From Nitrosopumilus sp. (GTDB lineage Archaea > Thermoproteota > Nitrososphaeria > Nitrososphaerales > Nitrosopumilaceae), in assembly GCA_965238275.1 (NCBI GenBank), contig OZ250186.1, positions 1,280,001 to 1,344,000 on the forward strand: a stretch of DNA of 64,000 bases. The letters run 5' to 3'. This document shows, piece by piece, positions 1 to 48,307 of this stretch. Numbering within the stretch: the first letter of the stretch is position 1; every line of letters begins with the position of its first letter. The notes beneath the pieces are model-generated. The model was not told where the DNA came from and did not search any database. It saw only the letters and a program-made list of their open reading frames with translations. The position numbers and the translations under genes were made by a program.

Positions 1-1869
1 TTTGAGAGGGACGGCAGCACCTACGCGATCGTCACGGCGCTCTACGACGACGGCGTCCATGTGATAAACGTCACCGACCCTGCCAACCCGACCGCAGAGG
101 GGCGCAAGACCTACGACCCCAGTTACCTTGACGGCCTATATGGCGTTACCGTCTTCTGGGACGGCGACAGCACCTACGCGATCATCATGCAAGGCTTGCT
201 CGACGGTGTTCGAATAGTGGACATCACCGATCCATCCAAGCTGGTTAACAAGAAGGTCATCTACGACAACGCAATTCTCAGGCTTGACGGCGCGAATGAC
301 GCTGCCACCTTCAAGATAGACGGCATCACCTACGCGATAGTCACGGCCAGGGATGATGACGGGGCCCTGATAATGCCCGTGGCCGCGTCTGCCGCCGCGC
401 GCGCACCGCCGGTCATAGCGCTCAACGGGACGTCTCCCGTCCAGGTACCTGCGGGCTCCGCCTACGTCGACGCGGGTGCCACCTGCACCGACGAGACAGA
501 AGGCGACCTCACCGACCTGATGCAGGTCATCCCAACTGTCGACACAGCTGTTTCTGGCAACTACGCCGTTACGTACATGTGCACCGACTCGATGGGCAAC
601 GAGGCGACCGCCGTCCGGGAGGTTCGTGTAGTGGATGCCCAACAGCCTGCCTTCACCGCCCCCGCCTTGAACGTCCCCGTCGAGGATTCGCCGCCCCCGC
701 CGCCGCCCAACACCGTAGTCTTGGAGCCGCGCGGCTCCCGCGACATAGGCAGGATCACCCTGACCAGCTCGGTGCCCGGGACCATCCACGCTTCCTGGGA
801 GGAACCCAGCGAGGATCCCGCCAACTACAGGATATCATGGGCCAAGGTGGGTGATGACTTCCTGGCCTGGATCGACCAGACCGGCAACGCCTTCCCGACA
901 GAACCACGTCATACCATTACGGGCCTGGAGGGTGGCGAGGAGTACAAGGTGATGGTGCGCGCCTCCTACGACGGCACCGCCGGCGACTGGAGCGGCGAGG
1001 TAACCATCACCGTTGCGGAGCCGCCTGGCAACAGCCAGTCCGTCGAGGATCCGCCGCCCCCGCCGCCGCCCAACACCGTAGTCTTGGAGCCGACCGGGCC
1101 GCTCGGCCCCCGCGACATAGGCAGGATCACCCTGACCAGCTCGGTGCCCGGGACCATCCACGCTTCCTGGGAGGAACCCAGCGAGGATCCCGCCAACTAC
1201 AGGATATCATGGGCCAAGGTGGGTGATGACTTCCTGGCCTGGATCGACCAGACCGGCAACGCCTTCCCGACAGAACCACGTCATACCATTACGGGCCTGG
1301 AGGGTGGCGAGGAGTACAAGGTGATGGTGCGCGCCTCCTACGACGGCACCGCCGGCGACTGGAGCGGCGAGGTAACCATCACCGTTGCGGAGCCGCCTGG
1401 CAACAGCCAGTCCGTCGAGGATCCGCCGCCCCCGCCGCCGTCCAACACCGTAGTCTTGGAGCCGACCGGGCCGCTCGGCCCCCGCGACATAGGCAGGATC
1501 ACCCTGACCAGCTCGGTGCCCGGGACCATCCACGCTTCCTGGGAGGAACCCAGCGAGGATCCCGCCAACTACAGGATATCATGGGCCAAGGTGGGTGATG
1601 ACTTCCTGACCTGGATCGACCAGACCGGCAACGCCTTCCCGACAGAACCACGTCATACCATTACGGGCCTGGAGGGTGGCGAGGAGTACAAGGTGATGGT
1701 GCGCGCCTCCTACGACGGCACCGCCGGCGACTGGAGCGGCGAGGTAACCATCACCGTTGCGGAGCCGCCTGGCAACAGCCAGTCCGTCGAGGATCCGCCG
1801 CCCCCGCCGCCGCCCAACACCGTAGTCTTGGAGCCGACCGGGCCGCTCGGCCCCCGCGACATATACTGA
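1..1869 (+). pseudogene. Large surface protein, 5' part (open at the window edge): LVIVD-like propeller repeats, Ig-like DUF5011/HYR-type domain and fibronectin type III repeats; interrupted by IS630
   Basis: Frame is open from position 1. Motifs GVRIVDITDPS (propeller repeat), PPVIALNG..YVDAGATC.D (DUF5011-like) and ASWEEP..NYRISW..TITGLEGGEEYKVMVRA (FN3). The stop at 1867-1869 lies inside the IS end. Confidence 0.8.
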
Positions 1870-2963
1870 CGCGCAAAAGTCTTTGAACAAATGCCCTAGC
1901 CAACCGCAAAGTTTCTAGATCAGACCCATTTCAGGGAATACATGGACAACACCAAACTGGAAGAACTCGAAAAGGCGTACAAAAAGGAAAAGGACCACAA
2001 GGTCCGAACCAGAATGGTTGTGGTGCGCATGGTGCGCGTGCGCAACATGACCGTGGAGGATACTGCCGACATCCAAGGACGTAGTCCAAACTGGGTCCGT
2101 AACTAGTTGCGCCGCTTCGACGACGGGGGCCTGCAAGGCCTCCGTGATCTTCCACGATGCGGACGGCCCAGAAAGATTTCACGAGACGTCATGGACAGAA
2201 TAATCGTAAGGGCATCCTGCTGTAGAATCACGCCCTCGGAGTTGCAGCAGAAGATACGCAAGGACGCGGGCGTAAAACTTCACATCACGTACGTCAGGAA
2301 AATCATGCACCAGCACAACCTGTCCCAAAGGCACCGCGAAAGGTCCACGTCAATAGGGCCAACAAGAAGGCCGTGCAGAACTGGAAATATCGCTTCAACA
2401 AGCGCGTTTCACGCCTAGAAAAGGATGGTTTCACCGTATTAATGGAGGACGAGGCAATTTTCATACACGACGTGATAGTCGGCCGCAAATACTGGTCCCC
2501 GGTGGGCCGTTCCATAAGCGTGCCGTATACTGGCAGCCACAAGAGGATCGCAGCGTACGGCTCAATTACCCGGGACGGCAGGCAGTTCTTCCGGACGTAT
2601 GAGAAATTCGACGGGCCCACGTTTGTCAAATACCTCAAGGATCTGCACAGGCACTTTGGCAAGGTGGCAGTGACCGCAGACAGGGCACCGCAGCACCGCT
2701 CAAAACTGGTAAAGGAATTTCTGCGAAATAACAAGGACGTCAAGATGATCTATTTGCCAAAGGGCTCGCCGTATCTCAACGCGATGGAAGAGTGCTGGCA
2801 CCAGGGAAAGCGCGTCCTGCTTGTCTCTGAATATTACAGGACATTCCAAGACATGCACCGGGCAGTTTCGCTGTATTATCGAACTGTCAGATTCAAGCTT
2901 GACCTTCTCAAATTTACCAGCCGAAAATATGAGATGCTGTGCAAGGACTTTTGATCGTCAGTA
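1864..2963 (+). mobile_element. IS630-family insertion sequence, 1100 bp
   Basis: TIRs tactgacgcgcaaaagtctttg (left) and tactgacgatcaaaagtccttg (reverse complement of right end), 19/22 identical. TA is duplicated at 1862-1863 and 2964-2965. Removing the element restores the repeat sequence gacaTAggcagg. Confidence 0.93.
1942..2954 (+). pseudogene. IS630 DDE transposase, inactivated
   Basis: ATG at 1942 (MDNTKLEELEKAY...). In-frame TAG at 2104-2106, probably from TGG. Frame change near 2325. HTH region (GLQGLRDLPRCGRPRK) and DDE motifs EDEA, ADRAPQH and YLPKGSPYLNAMEECW are present. Confidence 0.88.
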
Positions 2964-2965
2964 TA

Positions 2966-3529
2966 GGCAGGATCACCCTGACCAGCTCGGTGCCCGGGAC
3001 CATCCACGCTTCCTGGGAGGAACCCAGCGAGGATCCCGCCAACTACAGGATATCATGGGCCAAGGTGGGTGATGACTTCCTGGCCTGGATCGACCAGACC
3101 GGCAACGCCTTCCCGACAGAACCACGTCATACCATTACGGGCCTGGAGGGTGGCGAGGAGTACAAGGTGATGGTGCGCGCCTCCTACGACGGCACCGCCG
3201 GCGACTGGAGCGGCGAGGTAACCATCACCGTTGCGGAGCCGCCTGGCAACAGCCAGTCCGTCGAGGATCCGCCGCCCCCGCCGCCGTCCAACACCGTAGT
3301 CTTGGAGCCGACCGGGCCGCTCGGCCCCCGCGACATAGGCAGGATCACCCTGACCAGCTCGGTGCCCGGGACCATCCACGCTTCCTGGGAGGAACCCAGC
3401 GAGGATCCCGCCAACTACAGGATATCATGGGCCAAGGTGGGTGATGACTTCCTGGCCTGGATCGACCAGACCGGCAACGCCTTCCCGACAGAACCACGTC
3501 ATACCATTACGGGCTTGGAGGGTGGCGAG
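2966..3529 (+). pseudogene. 3' remnant of the FN3-repeat surface protein
   Basis: Continues the interrupted repeat and breaks mid-FN3 (TITGLEGGE) into unrelated sequence. Confidence 0.8.
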
Positions 3530-3961
3530 ATGCTGTCCGATGCGGGCCGATCAGGGTGGAAAGCCGGCATGCGGGACTTCTCTGGATTGGGGGCTGTCAA
3601 TCTGGGATTTTGCATGACGAATCTGGAAAGCTGCCCACCAGCGTCCCGATCCTAGCTGATGAGTCCCCTTGCCTTGAGTTTAGCCATTGTTCCGGCTACC
3701 TCATGCAACACAGATTACCTGGAGCGTAGAATTTTTCTAGCGATCAGTTTCTTCTTGGGATTGACCTTGACCTTACACACTATCGTATAGTTGGTGCTTG
3801 GCACATCGTTTCGCAAAATCATTTCATGAACAGAAATGCCAGCTTTTTCCAAATACGTATACCGACAATGAAAAATTCATATCAAAATTTTCCATAAATG
3901 CCTGATACGGCAACTGCATCTGGAAATCATGACACATGATAACCCCTTCCGGCTCGACGTG

Positions 3962-41151: not shown

Positions 41152-42411
41152 TTGAGATTTGCACACATGTCTGACATTCATCTGGGATTTCAAAAAGAGT
41201 CCGCACTGCAGGACGTGGAACGGCGTGTCTTTGAGGACGCGCTTGACAGATGCATGTCCATGAATGTCGACTTTATCCTGATGCCCGGCGACATATTCCA
41301 TGTAAACATTCCCGAGATGCGCGTTCAAAAATACGCATTCACAAAGTTCCGGGAGGTATACGAGGCCGGAATCCCCGTCTATGTCGTGTATGGGAGCCAC
41401 GACTTTTCCCCGGTGTCAAACTCGGTAATCGACCTGCTGGCTGCTGCAGGCTACATAATCAAGGTTGCAAATGCCACGAGTAATGATGACGGGACGATAT
41501 CCCTTGGCTTCATATCCGATGAAAAGACAGGCGCCAGGATCACCGGCCTGTCCGGGCTCAAGGCCGGAAACGACAGGGAACACTACCAAAAACTTGACAG
41601 GGTTCCCCTAGAGTCGGAACCCGGATTCAAGATATTTCTGTTTCATGCAGGGATTGCAGAGATGAAGGGAGACAATACCAACGAGGGAGACCAGATGCCA
41701 CTGTCGCTGCTTCCAAGGGGATTCTCCTACTATGCCGGAGGCCACATGCACAAGAGCAGCCATCAGACATTTGAGAGATACCCGCATGTCGTCTACTCTG
41801 GAACCCCGTTTGCAGGCTACCACTCGGATCTGGAGCATAATGCCCGGGGGACGGAACGGGGATTTTACACAGTCGAGTTTGAAGACGATGTAAAGTCAGT
41901 CGAGTTTGTCACCCTGGAAAACACCCGGTGTGAACTGATAGAAATCGACGCAGATGACAAGCCCGTAGAGTCAGTAAACCAGAAATTGCGCCGGAGCATA
42001 GATGAAATTGATCCCACAGACAAGGTCGTGATAGTCAAGATTGCAGGCGAGATGACCAGTGGAAAGACTGCCGATGTGGACATCTCTGCTGCAAGAAGCA
42101 GCCTTGCACAAAGGGGATCGCTTGTATCACTGGTCAACAAGAACCAGCTAAAATCAAAGGAGTACGCCATCACGCAGGCAAACGGTACTGACCGCACGGA
42201 GATCGAGACCAACATATTTTCTGAAAACATAGGACAGCTCCGTCTTGATCAAAAGGATCTGCTAGGAGAGCAGGGCGTCGATCTTGCGCGAAGACTGCTT
42301 CGAAAGCTGGGAGAAGAACCGCTGGCCAATGAAAAGAAAAACACATACGCTGCAAGGATCCAAAACGACGCACTGGCGATTCTGGGACTGGACGGGAATG
42401 ATGATTCTTAA
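41152..42411 (+). CDS. mre11: Mre11 nuclease
   Basis: SDIHLG, GDIFH, GSHD and GGHMH motifs. Confidence 0.92.
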   Translation: MRFAHMSDIHLGFQKESALQDVERRVFEDALDRCMSMNVDFILMPGDIFHVNIPEMRVQKYAFTKFREVYEAGIPVYVVYGSHDFSPVSNSVIDLLAAAGYIIKVANATSNDDGTISLGFISDEKTGARITGLSGLKAGNDREHYQKLDRVPLESEPGFKIFLFHAGIAEMKGDNTNEGDQMPLSLLPRGFSYYAGGHMHKSSHQTFERYPHVVYSGTPFAGYHSDLEHNARGTERGFYTVEFEDDVKSVEFVTLENTRCELIEIDADDKPVESVNQKLRRSIDEIDPTDKVVIVKIAGEMTSGKTADVDISAARSSLAQRGSLVSLVNKNQLKSKEYAITQANGTDRTEIETNIFSENIGQLRLDQKDLLGEQGVDLARRLLRKLGEEPLANEKKNTYAARIQNDALAILGLDGNDDS

Positions 42412-44821
42412 CTCCCTTGTAATCGAGAACATTCGAAGCTATGTCCATCAGGAGATAGAATTCCAACACGGGGTGTCCCTGTTTGAAGGCGATATCGGTT
42501 CGGGAAAATCCACCATACTGATGGCAATCGAGTTTGCGCTGTTTGGTCTGGGCTCCCAAAAGCCTGAAGCACTGCTGGCCAAAAAAGAAAGTACAGGCTA
42601 TGCCATATTGGAGTTTTCAGTGGACGGATGCAGATACGAGATTAAAAGGACGCTGAAAAGAACAGACCAGGGCATAAACCAGAACCCCAAGGAGACCTGG
42701 ATAAAGACTGAAGGAACAAAGGAGCCTCTCTCCCCATCGGACCTAAAGCAGCGAATTCTGCAGATTCTCAGGTTCAACGAATCCCCGAATCCCAGGGCAG
42801 AGAGCAGAATATTCCGATATGCCATCTTTACACCGCAGGAAGCAATGAAGAACGTGCTTGATGATGCCGGCAGGCGTCTTGAGACCATAAGAAAGGCATT
42901 TCAAATAGAAGAGTACAGCACTGCCGAATCCAATGCCCGGGTTCTGCTGTCCTACATCAGAACCGAGGCTAGGGTAATGCAAGACCGGTTTGGTAATATT
43001 CCCGAGATGGAGTCGCAGATGGAAAAATCCAAAACCCTGATTGATACTATCTGTGACCAGGTTTCAAAGGAAGAGGCGCAGATGAGGGCTCTTGCAGACA
43101 ATATTGAATCCGCCCAAGCAGCTTTACGTAAACTGCAGAATAAAAAAAATGACAAGATACGCCTAGAGTCTGACATTGACAGTCTGAAGGACAAAATTAG
43201 TCACAACACGGTGCGAATCGGACAGCTGAGGCAGGAAGTTGCCAGATCCAATACCGATCTGGACAGTGCCACCCGGGAATATGAGACTCTCTCCAAGACT
43301 GAAAGGCCAGATACTACAAAGAGCGTGACTGAACTTGCGTCTGAGATAAAAAAATTCCAAAGGATTCGCGAGGATCGCATACGGCTGGAGTCTGAAAAAG
43401 ACATCATTACCGGTGAAATATCCAAAATACAAGACGGGCTTGGAAGTATGGATTCGAGTCTTGAATCCAGTAACAGTCTGCTAGATTCCCTGCAAAAGAA
43501 GAAACGATCATGTGATGATGCCGAGCAGGAGATCAGAGGCAGTCTTGATGATGTGCGCAGCCAGAAAACCCGGACACAGACTGGCAAAAATGCGTTGAAG
43601 GTCGAGATTGGCAAGTTTGTCAAGCTGGGGAACAAGTGCCCTACATGTGATCAGACCATTGACGAGCAGCACAGCCATCAGATGATCGATGACAAGCAAA
43701 AAAAAGTACTGGAACTGGATGGAGAACTTGCATCCATTACAGATGTGTTGTCCGAACTAAACTCCAGACTGAATAACACTCTGGAAATGCGGAGTTCGTA
43801 TGAACAGGAGATCATCCGGATTCAGGATGTGATCCGAATGATCAAGATTCGTGATGAAAAGATGGCAAAAATACCGTCGATTGATGCCGGCATCCGGATG
43901 TTTAATCTGCAGTATTCTGAATTTCAAGGTGGGAATCCCGTTGATGTTCTGACTGACCTCAAGGATGCACTGATTCGGCATTATAACGCAACAGAGACAA
44001 TCCAACGCATTGATACTGCAAGACAAAAGACAGAGATGTTCATCACAAGATGCCGCGAGGAGATCGAGTCTGCAACGTCACAGAACTTGGACTGGGAGTC
44101 AGAACTAAATCAGAAGAGATCAGATCTTGAATCCTTTGAGGATGTGGATGATGCCATATTACAAAAAGAGACAGATCTGGACAAGCTCCGAAGAAACTAC
44201 AACACAGTCTCTAACGACATTACGGCAGGACAGACAAGGATACAAAATGAAAAAGCAAAACTGGAACAGGATACAACCCGTCTTGCAGAGTCCAAAATGT
44301 GGAAATCAAAACACCAAAAATTCTCACAGTTTCAGGAATGGTTAGAAGAGTTCTTCATTCCAACAACTGCGTATATTGAAAAACAGGTAATGCTGTCCAT
44401 CCTGCAGCGATTCAACGAGACATACCATGACTGGTACTCTGTTCTGGTGGATGATCCTACTAAGGAATCCCGGATTGACGAGAATTTTACACCCATTATA
44501 GACCAGGATGGAATAGACCAGGATGTTGCATTCCTGTCGGGAGGAGAAAAGACCAGCATCGCACTGGCATACCGGCTTACCCTGAACTCCCTGGTACGGG
44601 AGGAAGGCTCGATAAAGTCCAACCTGCTGATTCTAGATGAGCCCACAGACGGCTTTTCCAAGAATCAACTGTACAAGGTCCGTCAGATACTCGATGATCT
44701 CGAATCCGAACAGATCATCCTTGTCTCTCATGACCCGGAGCTTGAGACTTGCGCCGACCACGTATTCCGGATCTCAAAACAAGACGGAATATCACGTGTC
44801 CAAAGCATGAACCCTGGATAG
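42398..44821 (+). CDS. rad50: Rad50 ATPase
   Basis: GDIGSGKST, coiled coil with CPTC zinc hook, LSGGE and LDEPT. Confidence 0.93.
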   Translation: MMILNSLVIENIRSYVHQEIEFQHGVSLFEGDIGSGKSTILMAIEFALFGLGSQKPEALLAKKESTGYAILEFSVDGCRYEIKRTLKRTDQGINQNPKETWIKTEGTKEPLSPSDLKQRILQILRFNESPNPRAESRIFRYAIFTPQEAMKNVLDDAGRRLETIRKAFQIEEYSTAESNARVLLSYIRTEARVMQDRFGNIPEMESQMEKSKTLIDTICDQVSKEEAQMRALADNIESAQAALRKLQNKKNDKIRLESDIDSLKDKISHNTVRIGQLRQEVARSNTDLDSATREYETLSKTERPDTTKSVTELASEIKKFQRIREDRIRLESEKDIITGEISKIQDGLGSMDSSLESSNSLLDSLQKKKRSCDDAEQEIRGSLDDVRSQKTRTQTGKNALKVEIGKFVKLGNKCPTCDQTIDEQHSHQMIDDKQKKVLELDGELASITDVLSELNSRLNNTLEMRSSYEQEIIRIQDVIRMIKIRDEKMAKIPSIDAGIRMFNLQYSEFQGGNPVDVLTDLKDALIRHYNATETIQRIDTARQKTEMFITRCREEIESATSQNLDWESELNQKRSDLESFEDVDDAILQKETDLDKLRRNYNTVSNDITAGQTRIQNEKAKLEQDTTRLAESKMWKSKHQKFSQFQEWLEEFFIPTTAYIEKQVMLSILQRFNETYHDWYSVLVDDPTKESRIDENFTPIIDQDGIDQDVAFLSGGEKTSIALAYRLTLNSLVREEGSIKSNLLILDEPTDGFSKNQLYKVRQILDDLESEQIILVSHDPELETCADHVFRISKQDGISRVQSMNPG

Positions 44822-44858: not shown

Positions 44859-44915
44859 CTCCTCCTCCTCCTCCTCCTCCTCCTCCTCCTCCTCCTCCTC
44901 CTCCCACTCCTCCTC
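44859..44915. repeat. (CTC)n microsatellite, about 15 perfect units
   Basis: Intergenic ctc run after rad50. Confidence 0.95.
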
Positions 44916-45067
44916 ATGGCATGCTTGTCCAGATTATGCCATCTGGTTGGATACAGGCCAGCATCACAACCTGATTCCAACATGCTTCTGGAATGTGGCA
45001 TACCCGAAACATTCCTGCTGCAGCGTCCGACTTATGTTTAAATAATGTCGGCAAACTTTTTGACGCA

Positions 45068-46165
45068 ATGGTTGGAATCGATCAGGTACTTGAGAAGCTC
45101 AGCACCGTAATTGATCCCGACCTGAAGAAGGATATCGTCTCCATGGGCATGATAAAGGATCTGGAGCTTGCAGACGGCAACCTAAAGTTCACGCTTGAAC
45201 TGACTACTCCTGCATGTCCCTTCAATGTTGAGATTGAAGATGACGTCAGGCGCGTGGTAGGCGAGCTTTCCGAGTTGAAGAATTTTGATCTGAACGTGAC
45301 TGCAAAGGTGATGGAGGGACGCTCCCTTGATGCTGACACCGGAATGGCAACTGTCAAGAACATCATCGGCGTTGCAAGCGGAAAGGGCGGCGTAGGAAAA
45401 TCCACAGTCTCCCTGAACCTGGCACTTGCGCTGTTCCAGACGGGGGCCAAGGTGGGGCTGCTTGATGCAGACATCTACGGCCCCAGCATCCCGCTCATGC
45501 TTGGAATGAAGGACGGCTGCATGGAAGTCGAGGACAACAAGCTTCAGCCTGCAGACTCCAACGGGCTCAAGGTGGTATCCTTTGGATTCTTTGCCGAGCA
45601 GTCGCACCAGGCTGCAATATACCGCGGCCCGATAATATCCGGAATACTCAAGCAGTTTCTTGTTGACACCAACTGGTCTGATCTGGACTACCTGATAGTG
45701 GATCTTCCGCCGGGCACCGGCGACATACCGCTGACCCTTGCACAGACTATCCCCATTACGGGCATTCTGGTGGTAACCACGCCGCAGGATGTTGCCAGCA
45801 ATGTCGCAGTAAAGGCAATCGGCATGTTTGAAAAGCTCAACGTTCCGATAATCGGCGTCGTTGAGAATATGAGCCACTTTATCTGCCCAAACTGTGACGA
45901 GAGGCACTACATCTTTGGCGAAGGCGGCGCCAGGAAGATAAGCGAACAGTTCAATATGCCGTTTCTGGGAGAGGTTCCGCTAAACTCCGGCATCATGTCC
46001 GGATCCGATCTGGGAAAGCCCATCATGATTACAAACACCGATTCTCCAAGCGCCGTAGCCTTCAGGGTGGCTGCCAAGAATATTGCCGCCCAGTGCAGCA
46101 TTCTTGCAGCAAAACTGCGGCAGGAGATGGAGTCTGAGGGATCAGAGGCAAGCGCTTCAAACTAG
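45068..46165 (+). CDS. Mrp/NBP35 Fe-S cluster carrier ATPase
   Basis: N-terminal DUF59-like region; SGKGGVGKS, DLPPGTGD and ENMS..CPNC motifs. Confidence 0.94.
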   Translation: MVGIDQVLEKLSTVIDPDLKKDIVSMGMIKDLELADGNLKFTLELTTPACPFNVEIEDDVRRVVGELSELKNFDLNVTAKVMEGRSLDADTGMATVKNIIGVASGKGGVGKSTVSLNLALALFQTGAKVGLLDADIYGPSIPLMLGMKDGCMEVEDNKLQPADSNGLKVVSFGFFAEQSHQAAIYRGPIISGILKQFLVDTNWSDLDYLIVDLPPGTGDIPLTLAQTIPITGILVVTTPQDVASNVAVKAIGMFEKLNVPIIGVVENMSHFICPNCDERHYIFGEGGARKISEQFNMPFLGEVPLNSGIMSGSDLGKPIMITNTDSPSAVAFRVAAKNIAAQCSILAAKLRQEMESEGSEASASN

Positions 46166-46675: not shown

Positions 46676-46725
46676 GCATGCAGAACAGCCTGTACCCCCG
46701 ACAGAACCAGAATAGACCAAATCTT

Positions 46726-48174
46726 TTATAGCGGCGAGCGAAAGTTCGTACAAACAGATTTCTCTGTAGCATGTCCTGGTGCTCTTTCCGGCGCTCTGTT
46801 AGACCTTCCAATATTGTCGTCGTCGTCGTCATCGGGTCCAAGCCGACCTGTCGAATTGTTCATTCCAGAACTATCCGATCCGTGATCCTCGCGCCTTGTG
46901 ACGACCTCGACACCTGCAATGGTGTCTCCACAATTCCCGTGGGCTTGGCCGCCAGTCTCCTCCGTATGGGGACAGTCATTATCCAAAATGTTTTTTGCCG
47001 CGTTCTTGTCGGCATGGTGGCACCATCCGCATGAGGTGCAGACAAATGATTCGCCGTTCCTGGACTTCTTGTCCACTACCCCGCAGGCAGCGCATCTCTG
47101 ACTTGTATATGCGTGTTCCACGCGTTTTGTAATTCCGCCTTTCTTTTTCATCTGCCATTCAACTTGGCTCCGAAACTCGCCCATTCTGGAATAGGCCATC
47201 TCGCGGTTCAACCCCGTCTTTGAAGCCGTCCCGCAGGATCGCCTCATCTTGGTCAAATCCAGGTCTTCCAAGAACAATACGGACAGTCCTTTTGTTATCC
47301 GCCTGGCAATGTCGGCCTCGTTGTGTTTTTGCATGTTTGATGTCTTTTTCAACTCACGCGTTATCCTGCGGCCGATCTCTTTCCATCTTCTGGAGCCTGC
47401 CTGGCATCTTGATCTAAATGATTTCAGCTGATCAATCCTGTCGCCGTCATGCCTCTTGCAGCATCCGGGGACATTGTACAGTTTTTCGTTCCCATGCTCG
47501 TCTGCGACTGCCGCAAGGTGCCTGACTCCAAGATCCAGCCCTGCCTTGCATTTGTCGCCGCTGCCTGTCGCGTGTTCGGGGTCTGGGACTTCTATCTGCA
47601 AATGCAGTTTGAATTCGCGATCACCATCCCCGGTCTTACGCGTGACCTTGCCTGTGATATCAACCATCTGGAACGACACGAGCCTGCCTTCTGGAACCTT
47701 CGTGCGTGGCCTTGCTTCCCCGAGTCCTGGCAGAAATACGTCTCCGTCGTCGCGCAGTTTTGGTTTTCCGCGTGAATTCAGCGAGCGCAGCCTGGTTGTT
47801 TTCCTGCCGCGCCTCATCAGGCTGGACGGCTCGGTCCACCTGTTGTGCTTGTACGTTTTCTTTTTCCCCAGCTTGATCTGCTTCTTGCGCCAGATGCGCT
47901 TGTTGTGCTTGAGCCGGTTTGCCTTGCGGAATTTGACTGCCGCCTGGAAAGCCTGTTTTGAGGCGGCCTCACGCATGCGGACGCTGCAGGTCAGGCCGAA
48001 TTCCCTGCGCCATCCTGTTGTCAGGTTGTTGATGTCAAACTGCGTGATTCTGGGATGTGCAAGTTTCATCATGATTGTTATGTCGTAAATGATGTCAGTT
48101 TCCCGGGAGCATTTCACGATCTTGCGTGATAGTTCCCGAGATTGTGTTATTTTGATGATTTTGCTGACAATCAT
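46726..48174 (-). CDS. tnpB: TnpB RNA-guided endonuclease
   Basis: RuvC-I GLDLGVRHLA, RuvC-II LEDL, zinc finger TSQRCAACG..CTSCG and RuvC-III HADKNAAKNIL. Confidence 0.93.
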   Translation of the reverse strand: MIVSKIIKITQSRELSRKIVKCSRETDIIYDITIMMKLAHPRITQFDINNLTTGWRREFGLTCSVRMREAASKQAFQAAVKFRKANRLKHNKRIWRKKQIKLGKKKTYKHNRWTEPSSLMRRGRKTTRLRSLNSRGKPKLRDDGDVFLPGLGEARPRTKVPEGRLVSFQMVDITGKVTRKTGDGDREFKLHLQIEVPDPEHATGSGDKCKAGLDLGVRHLAAVADEHGNEKLYNVPGCCKRHDGDRIDQLKSFRSRCQAGSRRWKEIGRRITRELKKTSNMQKHNEADIARRITKGLSVLFLEDLDLTKMRRSCGTASKTGLNREMAYSRMGEFRSQVEWQMKKKGGITKRVEHAYTSQRCAACGVVDKKSRNGESFVCTSCGWCHHADKNAAKNILDNDCPHTEETGGQAHGNCGDTIAGVEVVTRREDHGSDSSGMNNSTGRLGPDDDDDDNIGRSNRAPERAPGHATEKSVCTNFRSPL

Positions 48175-48258
48175 GGGAGGGTTAACATAGATGCCTGTAA
48201 TTGGGATTTATTTTCTTAAAAAGGATCTCAAAATTGTACGAACTTTCGCTTTTCACTA
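46729..48258 (-). mobile_element. 1530-bp non-autonomous TIR element with TA duplication, carrying only tnpB
   Basis: TIRs tagcggcgagcgaaagttcgtacaa (46729-46753) and tagtgaaaagcgaaagttcgtacaa (reverse complement of 48234-48258): 21/25 identical with a 17-bp perfect core. TA at 46727-46728 and 48259-48260. Confidence 0.85.
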
Positions 48259-48307
48259 TAGAACAATTGACACGGCATGATAAACGCAAATTGCATTACA
48301 CCATGTT

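Follow-up and report, generated by a model that had tools for sequence, protein, structure and literature searches.

Short mobile elements derived from the IS630 family of insertion sequences (ISs) are well known. These miniature inverted-repeat transposable elements (MITEs), such as RUP of pneumococcus, are non-autonomous, carry IS630-type terminal inverted repeats (TIRs) only, insert at TA and need a resident IS630 transposase. In eukaryotes, the TnpB-family nuclease Fanzor1 was reportedly found by Bao and Jurka in 2013 within Tc1/mariner and other DDE transposons. Here we describe a 1.53-kb transposable element of the archaeon Nitrosopumilus sp. that combines traits of both, as its single gene is a tnpB and its ends are TIRs of the IS630 type. 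It lies in a stretch of 64,000 nucleotides (assembly GCA_965238275.1, contig OZ250186.1, positions 1,280,001 to 1,344,000), hereafter called the window, to which coordinates refer unless they are given as genome positions.

A TnpB branch that is linked to an IS630 DDE transposase and to a separate helix-turn-helix (HTH) protein, within symmetrical ends, was named DDE-6 by Altae-Tran et al. (PNAS 2023, PMC10691335). The branch was also noted in giant viruses and a possible link to Fanzors was proposed. The same paper reports solo TnpBs bounded by the ends of transposase-bearing elements and suggests that such TnpBs are mobilised in trans. A 2026 review (PMC13565253) restates these findings on IS630-linked and solo TnpBs. 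It describes IS200/IS605 elements as having asymmetric hairpin ends, no TIRs, no target duplication and a Y1 TnpA, and for Fanzor elements it places the 5' target duplication within the target-adjacent motif (TAM) and the 3' duplication within the RNA scaffold. Fanzor2 elements bounded by TIRs, from eukaryotes only, were described by Yoon et al. in 2023 (PMC10711439).

The tnpB element and its copies

We consider it quite probable that the element is a non-autonomous member of a lineage of IS630-family elements, designated IS630-D, in which tnpB and a putative omega-RNA have replaced the DDE transposase, that it is moved in trans and that its TnpB serves in homing via the motif C-TA. The unit spans positions 46727-48260, is flanked by TA on both sides and contains tnpB, intact and on the minus strand, as its single gene. 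Over the 28 positions that start with the TA, its two ends are identical at 23, including a perfect 17-nucleotide core, and the unit is thus bounded by TIRs of ~28 bp (TA counted in), so that the TIRs and TA flanks originally predicted for it are real. A repeat search of the window had delimited longer inverted-repeat arms of 36 nucleotides (46718-46753 and 48234-48269, 81% complementary), the outer few bases of which are chance matches between the flanks. No significant DNA hairpin was detected at the 5' end of the element in comparison with shuffled sequences (z 0.87 and 0.18), and hence no IS605-type hairpin there.

When the unit was compared with the whole genome (G000; one contig of 2,216,668 bp, 99.9% complete), 36 matches were obtained in one search and 34 matching segments by BLAST. 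They correspond to ~22 copies of the tnpB element in this 2.2-Mb genome, with ends common to all of them. The full-length copies start and stop at identical bases (TATAG...CTATAG), which indicates that the boundaries are real. The element proper thus runs from 46729 to 48258, and on the tnpB strand every copy has the layout flank-C-TA-TAGTG...(tnpB)...GCCGCTA-TA-flank. With the exception of one diverged copy (genome positions 2157228-2158722), which has TG on both sides in its place, as expected of a 2-bp target duplication, all copies are flanked by TA at either end. The TAA stop codon of tnpB is formed by the 3' TA and one base of the flank. An open reading frame (ORF) of at least 477 amino acids (aa) was retained in 14 of the 22 copies examined, and identity between copies ranged from 98.8% for the closest pair to ~81% for the most distant one.

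Some copies are found in unusual arrangements. A variant right-end TIR with ~55 nucleotides of element tail (genome positions 950960-951040) directly precedes another full tnpB copy; it reflects either a junction, tandem or rearranged, or a nested insertion of which a part has been deleted. The copy at genome position 951041 was considered as a nested insertion that would offer ~20 paralogous empty sites, and was rejected because the sequence of the host copy is not resumed in its 5' flank. The copies at 828605-830106 and 2146754-2148252 of the genome have both lost their 5' TIR at the same point, after which identical foreign sequence follows, suggesting a segmental duplication or an insertion common to that end. 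Another copy, at genome positions 883618-891004, is interrupted by ~5.9 kb that include an IS630 family-A element (DDE_3 match at 889457-889867).

The TnpB protein matched the Pfam models OrfB_IS605 (PF01385; 47.1 bits, cut-off 30.5) and Cas12f1-like_TNB (PF07282; 63.6 bits, cut-off 26.3) and passed the NCBIfam model guided_TnpB (NF040570; 121.6 bits, cut-off 100), and it scored far under the cut-offs of the IS607_TnpB (99 vs 350) and IS200_TnpB (65 vs 425) models. The aspartate of AGLDLG (AGxDxG), the glutamate of the FLED-type motif, the aspartate of HHADKN and the four cysteines of CxxC...CxxC were invariant in eight members of the family and in a further alignment (A2). We take the first three motifs to be RuvC I, II and III and the last to be the zinc finger. 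With these profiles passed and these motifs invariant, the gene is indeed, as originally predicted, an intact tnpB with three acidic residues and a zinc finger and the sole gene of the unit. It is under purifying selection, the ratio of non-synonymous to synonymous substitution rates (dN/dS) being 0.22 over codons 1-395 in 12 copies. The best matches among solved structures were TnpB or Cas12f-like proteins, and Fanzor2 L79 (E 1.8e-10) was one among the matches. One contig from a metatranscriptome (RNA library) spans positions 46784-48101 with ~94.5% identity; neither transcription nor RNA ends follow from it.

IS630-D as candidate helper

The transposase that may move the element was searched for in the complete genome sequence. 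The Y1_Tnp model (PF01797) had no match in this genome, nor had the serine recombinase/Resolvase model (PF00239), whereas the same searches were positive in 6 and 12 of 14 control genomes, respectively. The absence of a Y1 or serine TnpA, which the original prediction had stated for the neighbourhood of the element, therefore holds genome-wide. As most prokaryotic TnpBs reside in IS200/IS605 or IS607 elements (PMC13565253), the locus might have been an ordinary tnpB-only element of the IS200/IS605 (IS1341-type) or IS607 kind, served by a Y1 or serine TnpA, with the inverted repeat and the TA flanks being incidental. The IS607_TnpB and IS200_TnpB models do score the protein, far below their cut-offs as mentioned above. 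However, this explanation is already contradicted by the lack of both recombinases from the genome, by the symmetrical TIRs, which are homologous to those of IS630-D (see below), by empty sites that fit a 2-bp duplication and by the absence of a subterminal hairpin at the 5' end, and it retains next to no probability.

The genome contains 34 DDE_3 (IS630-type) matches, belonging to at least four or five IS630 families. Several IS630 families have copies that are >99% identical and, together with the ~22 tnpB elements, they make up a heavy transposon load. The TIRs of the IS630-D family start with TA-TAG or TA-TAC, followed by ...GACG..CAAAAGT.... The right TIR of IS630-D1 (genome positions 1873253-1874348) and the right-end TIR of the tnpB element have 24 of 28 positions in common, the TA being counted in. 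Over all pairs, the TIRs of the tnpB element and of IS630-D are identical at 17 to 24 of 28 positions, which is comparable to the identity between the left and right TIRs of IS630-D themselves (20-22/28); for three other co-resident IS630 families the values were 9-16/28. A search with the 17-nucleotide core, allowing up to 3 mismatches, gave 42 matches (40 at copies or fragments, one solo end and one apparently unrelated match), and it appeared from this that no IS630 element shares the TIR. This view was overturned by a looser search seeded with the IS630-D TIRs. When the right TIR of IS630-D1 was searched genome-wide with up to 5 mismatches, all matches besides itself were ends of tnpB elements, in register. 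The TIRs of the tnpB element are homologous to those of IS630-D.

Two intact IS630-D transposases are encoded in the genome, one by IS630-D1 (354 aa) and one by a copy of IS630-D2 (337 aa). Both have DDE_3 and HTH domains; their scores with the NCBIfam model transpos_IS630 (cut-off 100) are 175 and 172 bits, respectively. An IS630 transposase with matching TIRs, as sought, was thus found. In contrast, none of the 22 tnpB copies of this genome, and none among the ~20 seen in its closest relative, contains a transposase within the TIRs. The transposase and TnpB ORFs traverse the 3' TIR in the same frame, ending in ...CKNF* and ...CTNFRSPL*, which suggests that tnpB took the place and the orientation of the transposase.

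One copy of IS630-D2, with its transposase split into two frames, lies within the window itself (Table 1). It splits a large surface-protein-like gene (61-3655) made of 372-bp tandem repeats (3.2 copies with 98% matches according to TRF). The other repeats of the same gene provide paralogous empty sites at positions 737, 1109, 1481 and 3327, which read ...GACA-TA-GGCAGG, and these four sites indicate that IS630-D makes a TA duplication. TIR homology, two intact IS630-D transposases and the TA duplication together support the proposal, made in the original prediction, that tnpB was captured by an IS630-type element and would be mobilised in trans.

The same architecture was found in relatives. 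The closest relative (G017, flanks ~86% identical) contains three or four more tnpB families, with 54-57% and 46-48% protein identity, and a third genome (L060) contains one tnpB family with 72% protein identity. All these diverged families lie within IS630-D-type TIRs with C-TA at the 5' side. Several intact IS630-D transposases are present in the closest relative, and the TIRs match those of its tnpB elements. At E<=1e-30, tnpB of this lineage was found only in G000 and G017 among 201 sampled genomes of the order, and transposases at least 63% identical to that of IS630-D2 were found only in G000, G017 and G056. In a large protein database the lineage forms a tight cluster of proteins with at least 44% identity from a handful of genomes, and the next proteins beyond it are 27-29% identical (P0024, 623 aa, and P0025, 552 aa). 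The matches of P0024 among solved structures are Cas12f or TnpB-like and not Fanzor. A profile scan of viral contigs yielded just 12 weak matches, to the C-terminal part.

Predicted omega-RNA, empty sites and the flanking C

The last ~255 nucleotides of the element, which overlap the 3' tail of the tnpB ORF, were folded with RNAalifold using 10 sequences from 4-5 families. Of the 55 predicted pairs, 19 show compensatory changes. Paired cells amounted to 95.5%, compared with 32.5-46.6% when the partners were slid by 1-3 columns, and only 2-4 pairs, rather than 19, were changed on both sides in the slid alignments. The covariation score was not reached by any of 500 shuffles. In the last helix, an internal GAGC pairs with a GCTC located inside the TIR. 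The nucleotides of the 3' tail are also much more conserved than the divergence of the protein predicts, with a dS of 0.09 in the tail compared with 0.27 in the gene body. Since the ORF stops ~30 nucleotides before the end of the element in G017 and reaches the TA in G000, the tail appears to be constrained as RNA and not as protein. No Rfam family matched the region. The covariation thus shows that an RNA structure is conserved in this region. Bases of the TIR take part in its last helix, which is what an omega-RNA scaffold would be expected to show, and we regard the region as the predicted omega-RNA of the element. The predicted guide would be the flank directly 3' of it. With 18 nucleotides and up to 3 mismatches, this guide has one other match in the genome, with 3 mismatches.

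Empty sites were identified for three insertions. The orthologous site in the closest relative reads C-CA on the tnpB strand, two paralogous sites for the copy at genome position 708708 read C-TG and two paralogous sites for the copy at 883618 read C-AA. All three sites (5 sequences) have the length flank-C-NN-flank and contain the C, which indicates that 2 bp are duplicated upon insertion and that the C belongs to the target DNA. Each of the three sites is one base off TA. For the window element, the original prediction had given the empty site as atcttt-TA-gaacaa; its length agrees with that of the orthologous site in the closest relative, whereas the TA does not, as the site reads TG. Further orthologous empty sites were searched for two other copies (L006 and L003) in five relatives, where the flanks were rearranged and no clean site was found, and a search of the element flanks of G017 in G000 gave no clean empty site either.

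The C directly 5' of the TA was present at 40 of 40 left (tnpB 5') ends, namely 21/21 in G000, 18/18 in G017 and 1/1 in L060; the left ends of G017 were classified by hand, and 16 of their 18 flanks are distinct. At right ends a C was found in only 17 of 44 cases (Fisher p ~1e-10 compared with the left ends), and genome-wide 16.7% of TAs are preceded by C. The left flanks of four transposase-bearing IS630-D copies were a, t, c and g, i.e. without a constant C. The site to be matched by the guide once the element is excised would directly follow the C-TA. On account of this position and of the one-sided invariance of the C, we read C-TA as the likely TAM of this TnpB, the C being kept by survivorship of the copies.

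These data also bear on whether the association of tnpB with the TIRs might be a one-off accident, in which an IS630 MITE received an IS605-type tnpB element by insertion and the resulting composite multiplied, without any functional link. The capture must have begun with some such event, and the element is non-autonomous and MITE-like. Nevertheless, in three genomes and in families whose proteins are as little as 46% identical, tnpB occupies an equivalent position within TIRs of one type, the 5' TIR is separated from the start codon by just ~45-60 nucleotides, the last helix of the scaffold pairs with TIR bases and covaries, the dN/dS of tnpB is low and the C of the 5' flank is invariant. The presence of three or four further tnpB families with the same TIR type argues against a one-off nested insertion. 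The original prediction had named two observations that would speak against it, IS605-type hairpins inside the TIRs or TIRs not shared by other copies; the TIRs are present in all copies and in the diverged families, and the 5' end has no hairpin. An accidental association is therefore very unlikely.

Proposed mechanism and relation to known systems

According to the proposed mechanism, an IS630-D transposase encoded elsewhere in the genome would bind the TIRs and cut and paste the tnpB element into a TA. A transcript running through the 3' TIR and the TA would yield the omega-RNA, with the adjoining flank as guide. Upon excision and resealing, the donor site would consist of C-TA followed by the flank that matches the guide. 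TnpB would then see C-TA as its TAM and cut, and recombination with the sister chromosome copy would bring the element back. Copies landing behind a C would be retained, which would explain the invariant C of the 5' flank.

Several points weigh against this mechanism or parts of it. Transposition, RNA production and cleavage are all inferred from sequence. Even the two most similar copies are 1.2% different, giving no sign of very recent movement, and contigs from three DNA runs of three studies contained occupied junctions on both sides, none of them joining across the element. At the insertion point, TA is absent from all three empty sites, and the TA target of the tnpB element is deduced, for that reason, from the occupied sites and from IS630-D. 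The TIR identity of 17-24/28 with IS630-D is short of near-identity, and cross-recognition by the helper is plausible at this level. The preference for C may in part be that of the transposase, as right ends have 39% C against the genomic background of 16.7%. Finally, cut-and-paste excision already breaks the DNA, so that it is less clear than for IS605 what a homing nuclease would contribute (PMC13565253).

Some of these points are shared by an explanation in which the architecture stands and TnpB is not a homing nuclease, the C reflecting a CTAG-like preference of the transposase or a requirement of the 5' end and TnpB acting in regulation or defence or having no role. The enrichment of C at the other end, the breakage by DDE excision and the fact that TnpB cleavage and expression are predictions here would fit this explanation, as would the known preference of IS630 for CTAG. 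On the other hand, the asymmetry of 40/40 and 17/44 is unexpected for a palindromic preference, the transposase-bearing IS630-D copies lack a constant C, the catalytic residues remain intact under selection, and C-TA is located exactly where a TAM must be relative to the guide. A role other than homing thus seems unlikely to us, and homing via C-TA remains part of the preferred explanation.

The near-matches to predicted guides elsewhere in the genome, i.e. two paralogs each for two copies and ~24 element-internal matches for a third one, all lack C-TA. This fits avoidance of self-targeting, with few independent cases. A more speculative reading, which we regard as doubtful though conceivable, is that TnpB is an active 'site guardian', the guide near-matches without C-TA and the empty sites one base off TA being traces of RNA-guided self-targeting with TAM escape in a natural archaeal population.

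As in DDE-6 (PMC10691335), TnpB is enclosed by symmetrical inverted ends of the IS630 type, and one transposon end lies close to the 3' end of tnpB. In DDE-6, however, TnpB is co-encoded with the IS630 transposase and the HTH protein, whereas no transposase was found within any copy examined here, the host is an archaeon and the candidate helper is a separate 1.1-kb IS. As in Fanzor1 (PMC13565253), a TnpB-family nuclease is the cargo of a TIR transposon with TA duplication and a guide RNA running through the 3' TIR (both predicted here), and the geometry corresponds to that of Fanzor, the predicted C-TA including the 5' duplication and the 3' duplication lying in the scaffold. Unlike Fanzor, the element resides in a prokaryote, and its protein, at 482 aa, has the size of a TnpB, carries the acidic residues in the canonical order and is by sequence no closer to Fanzor2 than to other TnpBs. 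The tnpB-only elements of the IS1341 group (relatives of ISDra2) resemble it in having a solo tnpB, a 3' omega-RNA (a predicted one here), many copies and dependence on a transposase encoded elsewhere (a candidate one here). They differ in their asymmetric hairpin ends, their lack of TIRs and duplication and their use of a Y1 TnpA (PMC13565253); the element described here has TIRs, a 2-bp duplication and no Y1 transposase in the genome. With the IS630-derived MITEs it shares non-autonomy, IS630-type TIRs and, probably, insertion at TA and dependence on a resident IS630 transposase, but those are short and non-coding, whereas a nuclease gene of 1.45 kb and a structured RNA under selection are present here.

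The novelty that the original prediction saw in a TnpB within IS630-type ends was overstated, since IS630-linked and solo TnpBs had already been reported in PNAS 2023 (PMC10691335). The kind of element is thus known already, and what is added here is an archaeal, strictly non-autonomous lineage with a defined candidate helper, an RNA that shares TIR bases and an inferred C-TA TAM. A search of the literature found no account of an archaeal, strictly non-autonomous TnpB lineage like this one, although supplements, which were outside the search, may list it. The features of the element and of the IS630-D2 copy are compiled in Table 1.

Table 1. Features of the tnpB element and of the IS630-D2 copy in the 64,000-nucleotide window
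Feature	Position	Strand	Basis or remark
IS630-D2 copy including TA duplications, presumed helper family	1862-2965	plus	frames of the split transposase at 2107-2418 and 2373-2954
Predicted guide portion of the omega-RNA, flank directly 3' of the element	46707-46726	minus	inferred from position; ~16-20 nt assumed from known TnpBs
tnpB ORF, 482 aa, intact	46726-48174	minus	only long ORF; profile matches
Putative TA target-site duplication, tnpB 3' side	46727-46728	.	sequence and copy comparison
Right-end TIR (3' of tnpB)	46729-46754	.	conserved in all copies
Predicted structured scaffold of the omega-RNA; overlaps the tnpB ORF at its 3' tail and extends into the TIR	46732-46985	minus	
Short non-coding 5' region from left TIR to tnpB start; promoter presumed	48175-48232	minus	
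Left-end TIR (5' of tnpB)	48233-48258	.	inverted repeat and copy comparison
Putative TA target-site duplication, tnpB 5' side	48259-48260	.	sequence and copy comparison
Candidate TAM base, target-derived C directly 5' of TA (G on forward strand)	48261	minus	C in every copy and in all 3 empty sites

Elsewhere in the window, a (TCC)n microsatellite of ~16 units is found at 44859-44906, between a Rad50-like gene (42284-44821) and an Mrp/NBP35-like gene (44993-46165).

What a cut-and-paste (DDE) transposon gains from a guide-RNA nuclease is an open question, which is usually posed for eukaryotic Fanzors that are hard to study. The lineage described here offers a compact prokaryotic case, with two candidate helper transposases, ~22 cargo copies, an RNA scaffold sharing TIR bases and a predicted C-TA TAM that includes the target duplication. 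With these parts identified, the homing idea becomes directly testable, and an archaeal lineage is added to the survey-level report of IS630-linked TnpBs. If TnpB should indeed prove to be a site guardian, the lineage would represent, in a prokaryote, a functioning equivalent of the Fanzor1-type alliances between TnpB and DDE transposons, possibly near their origin.

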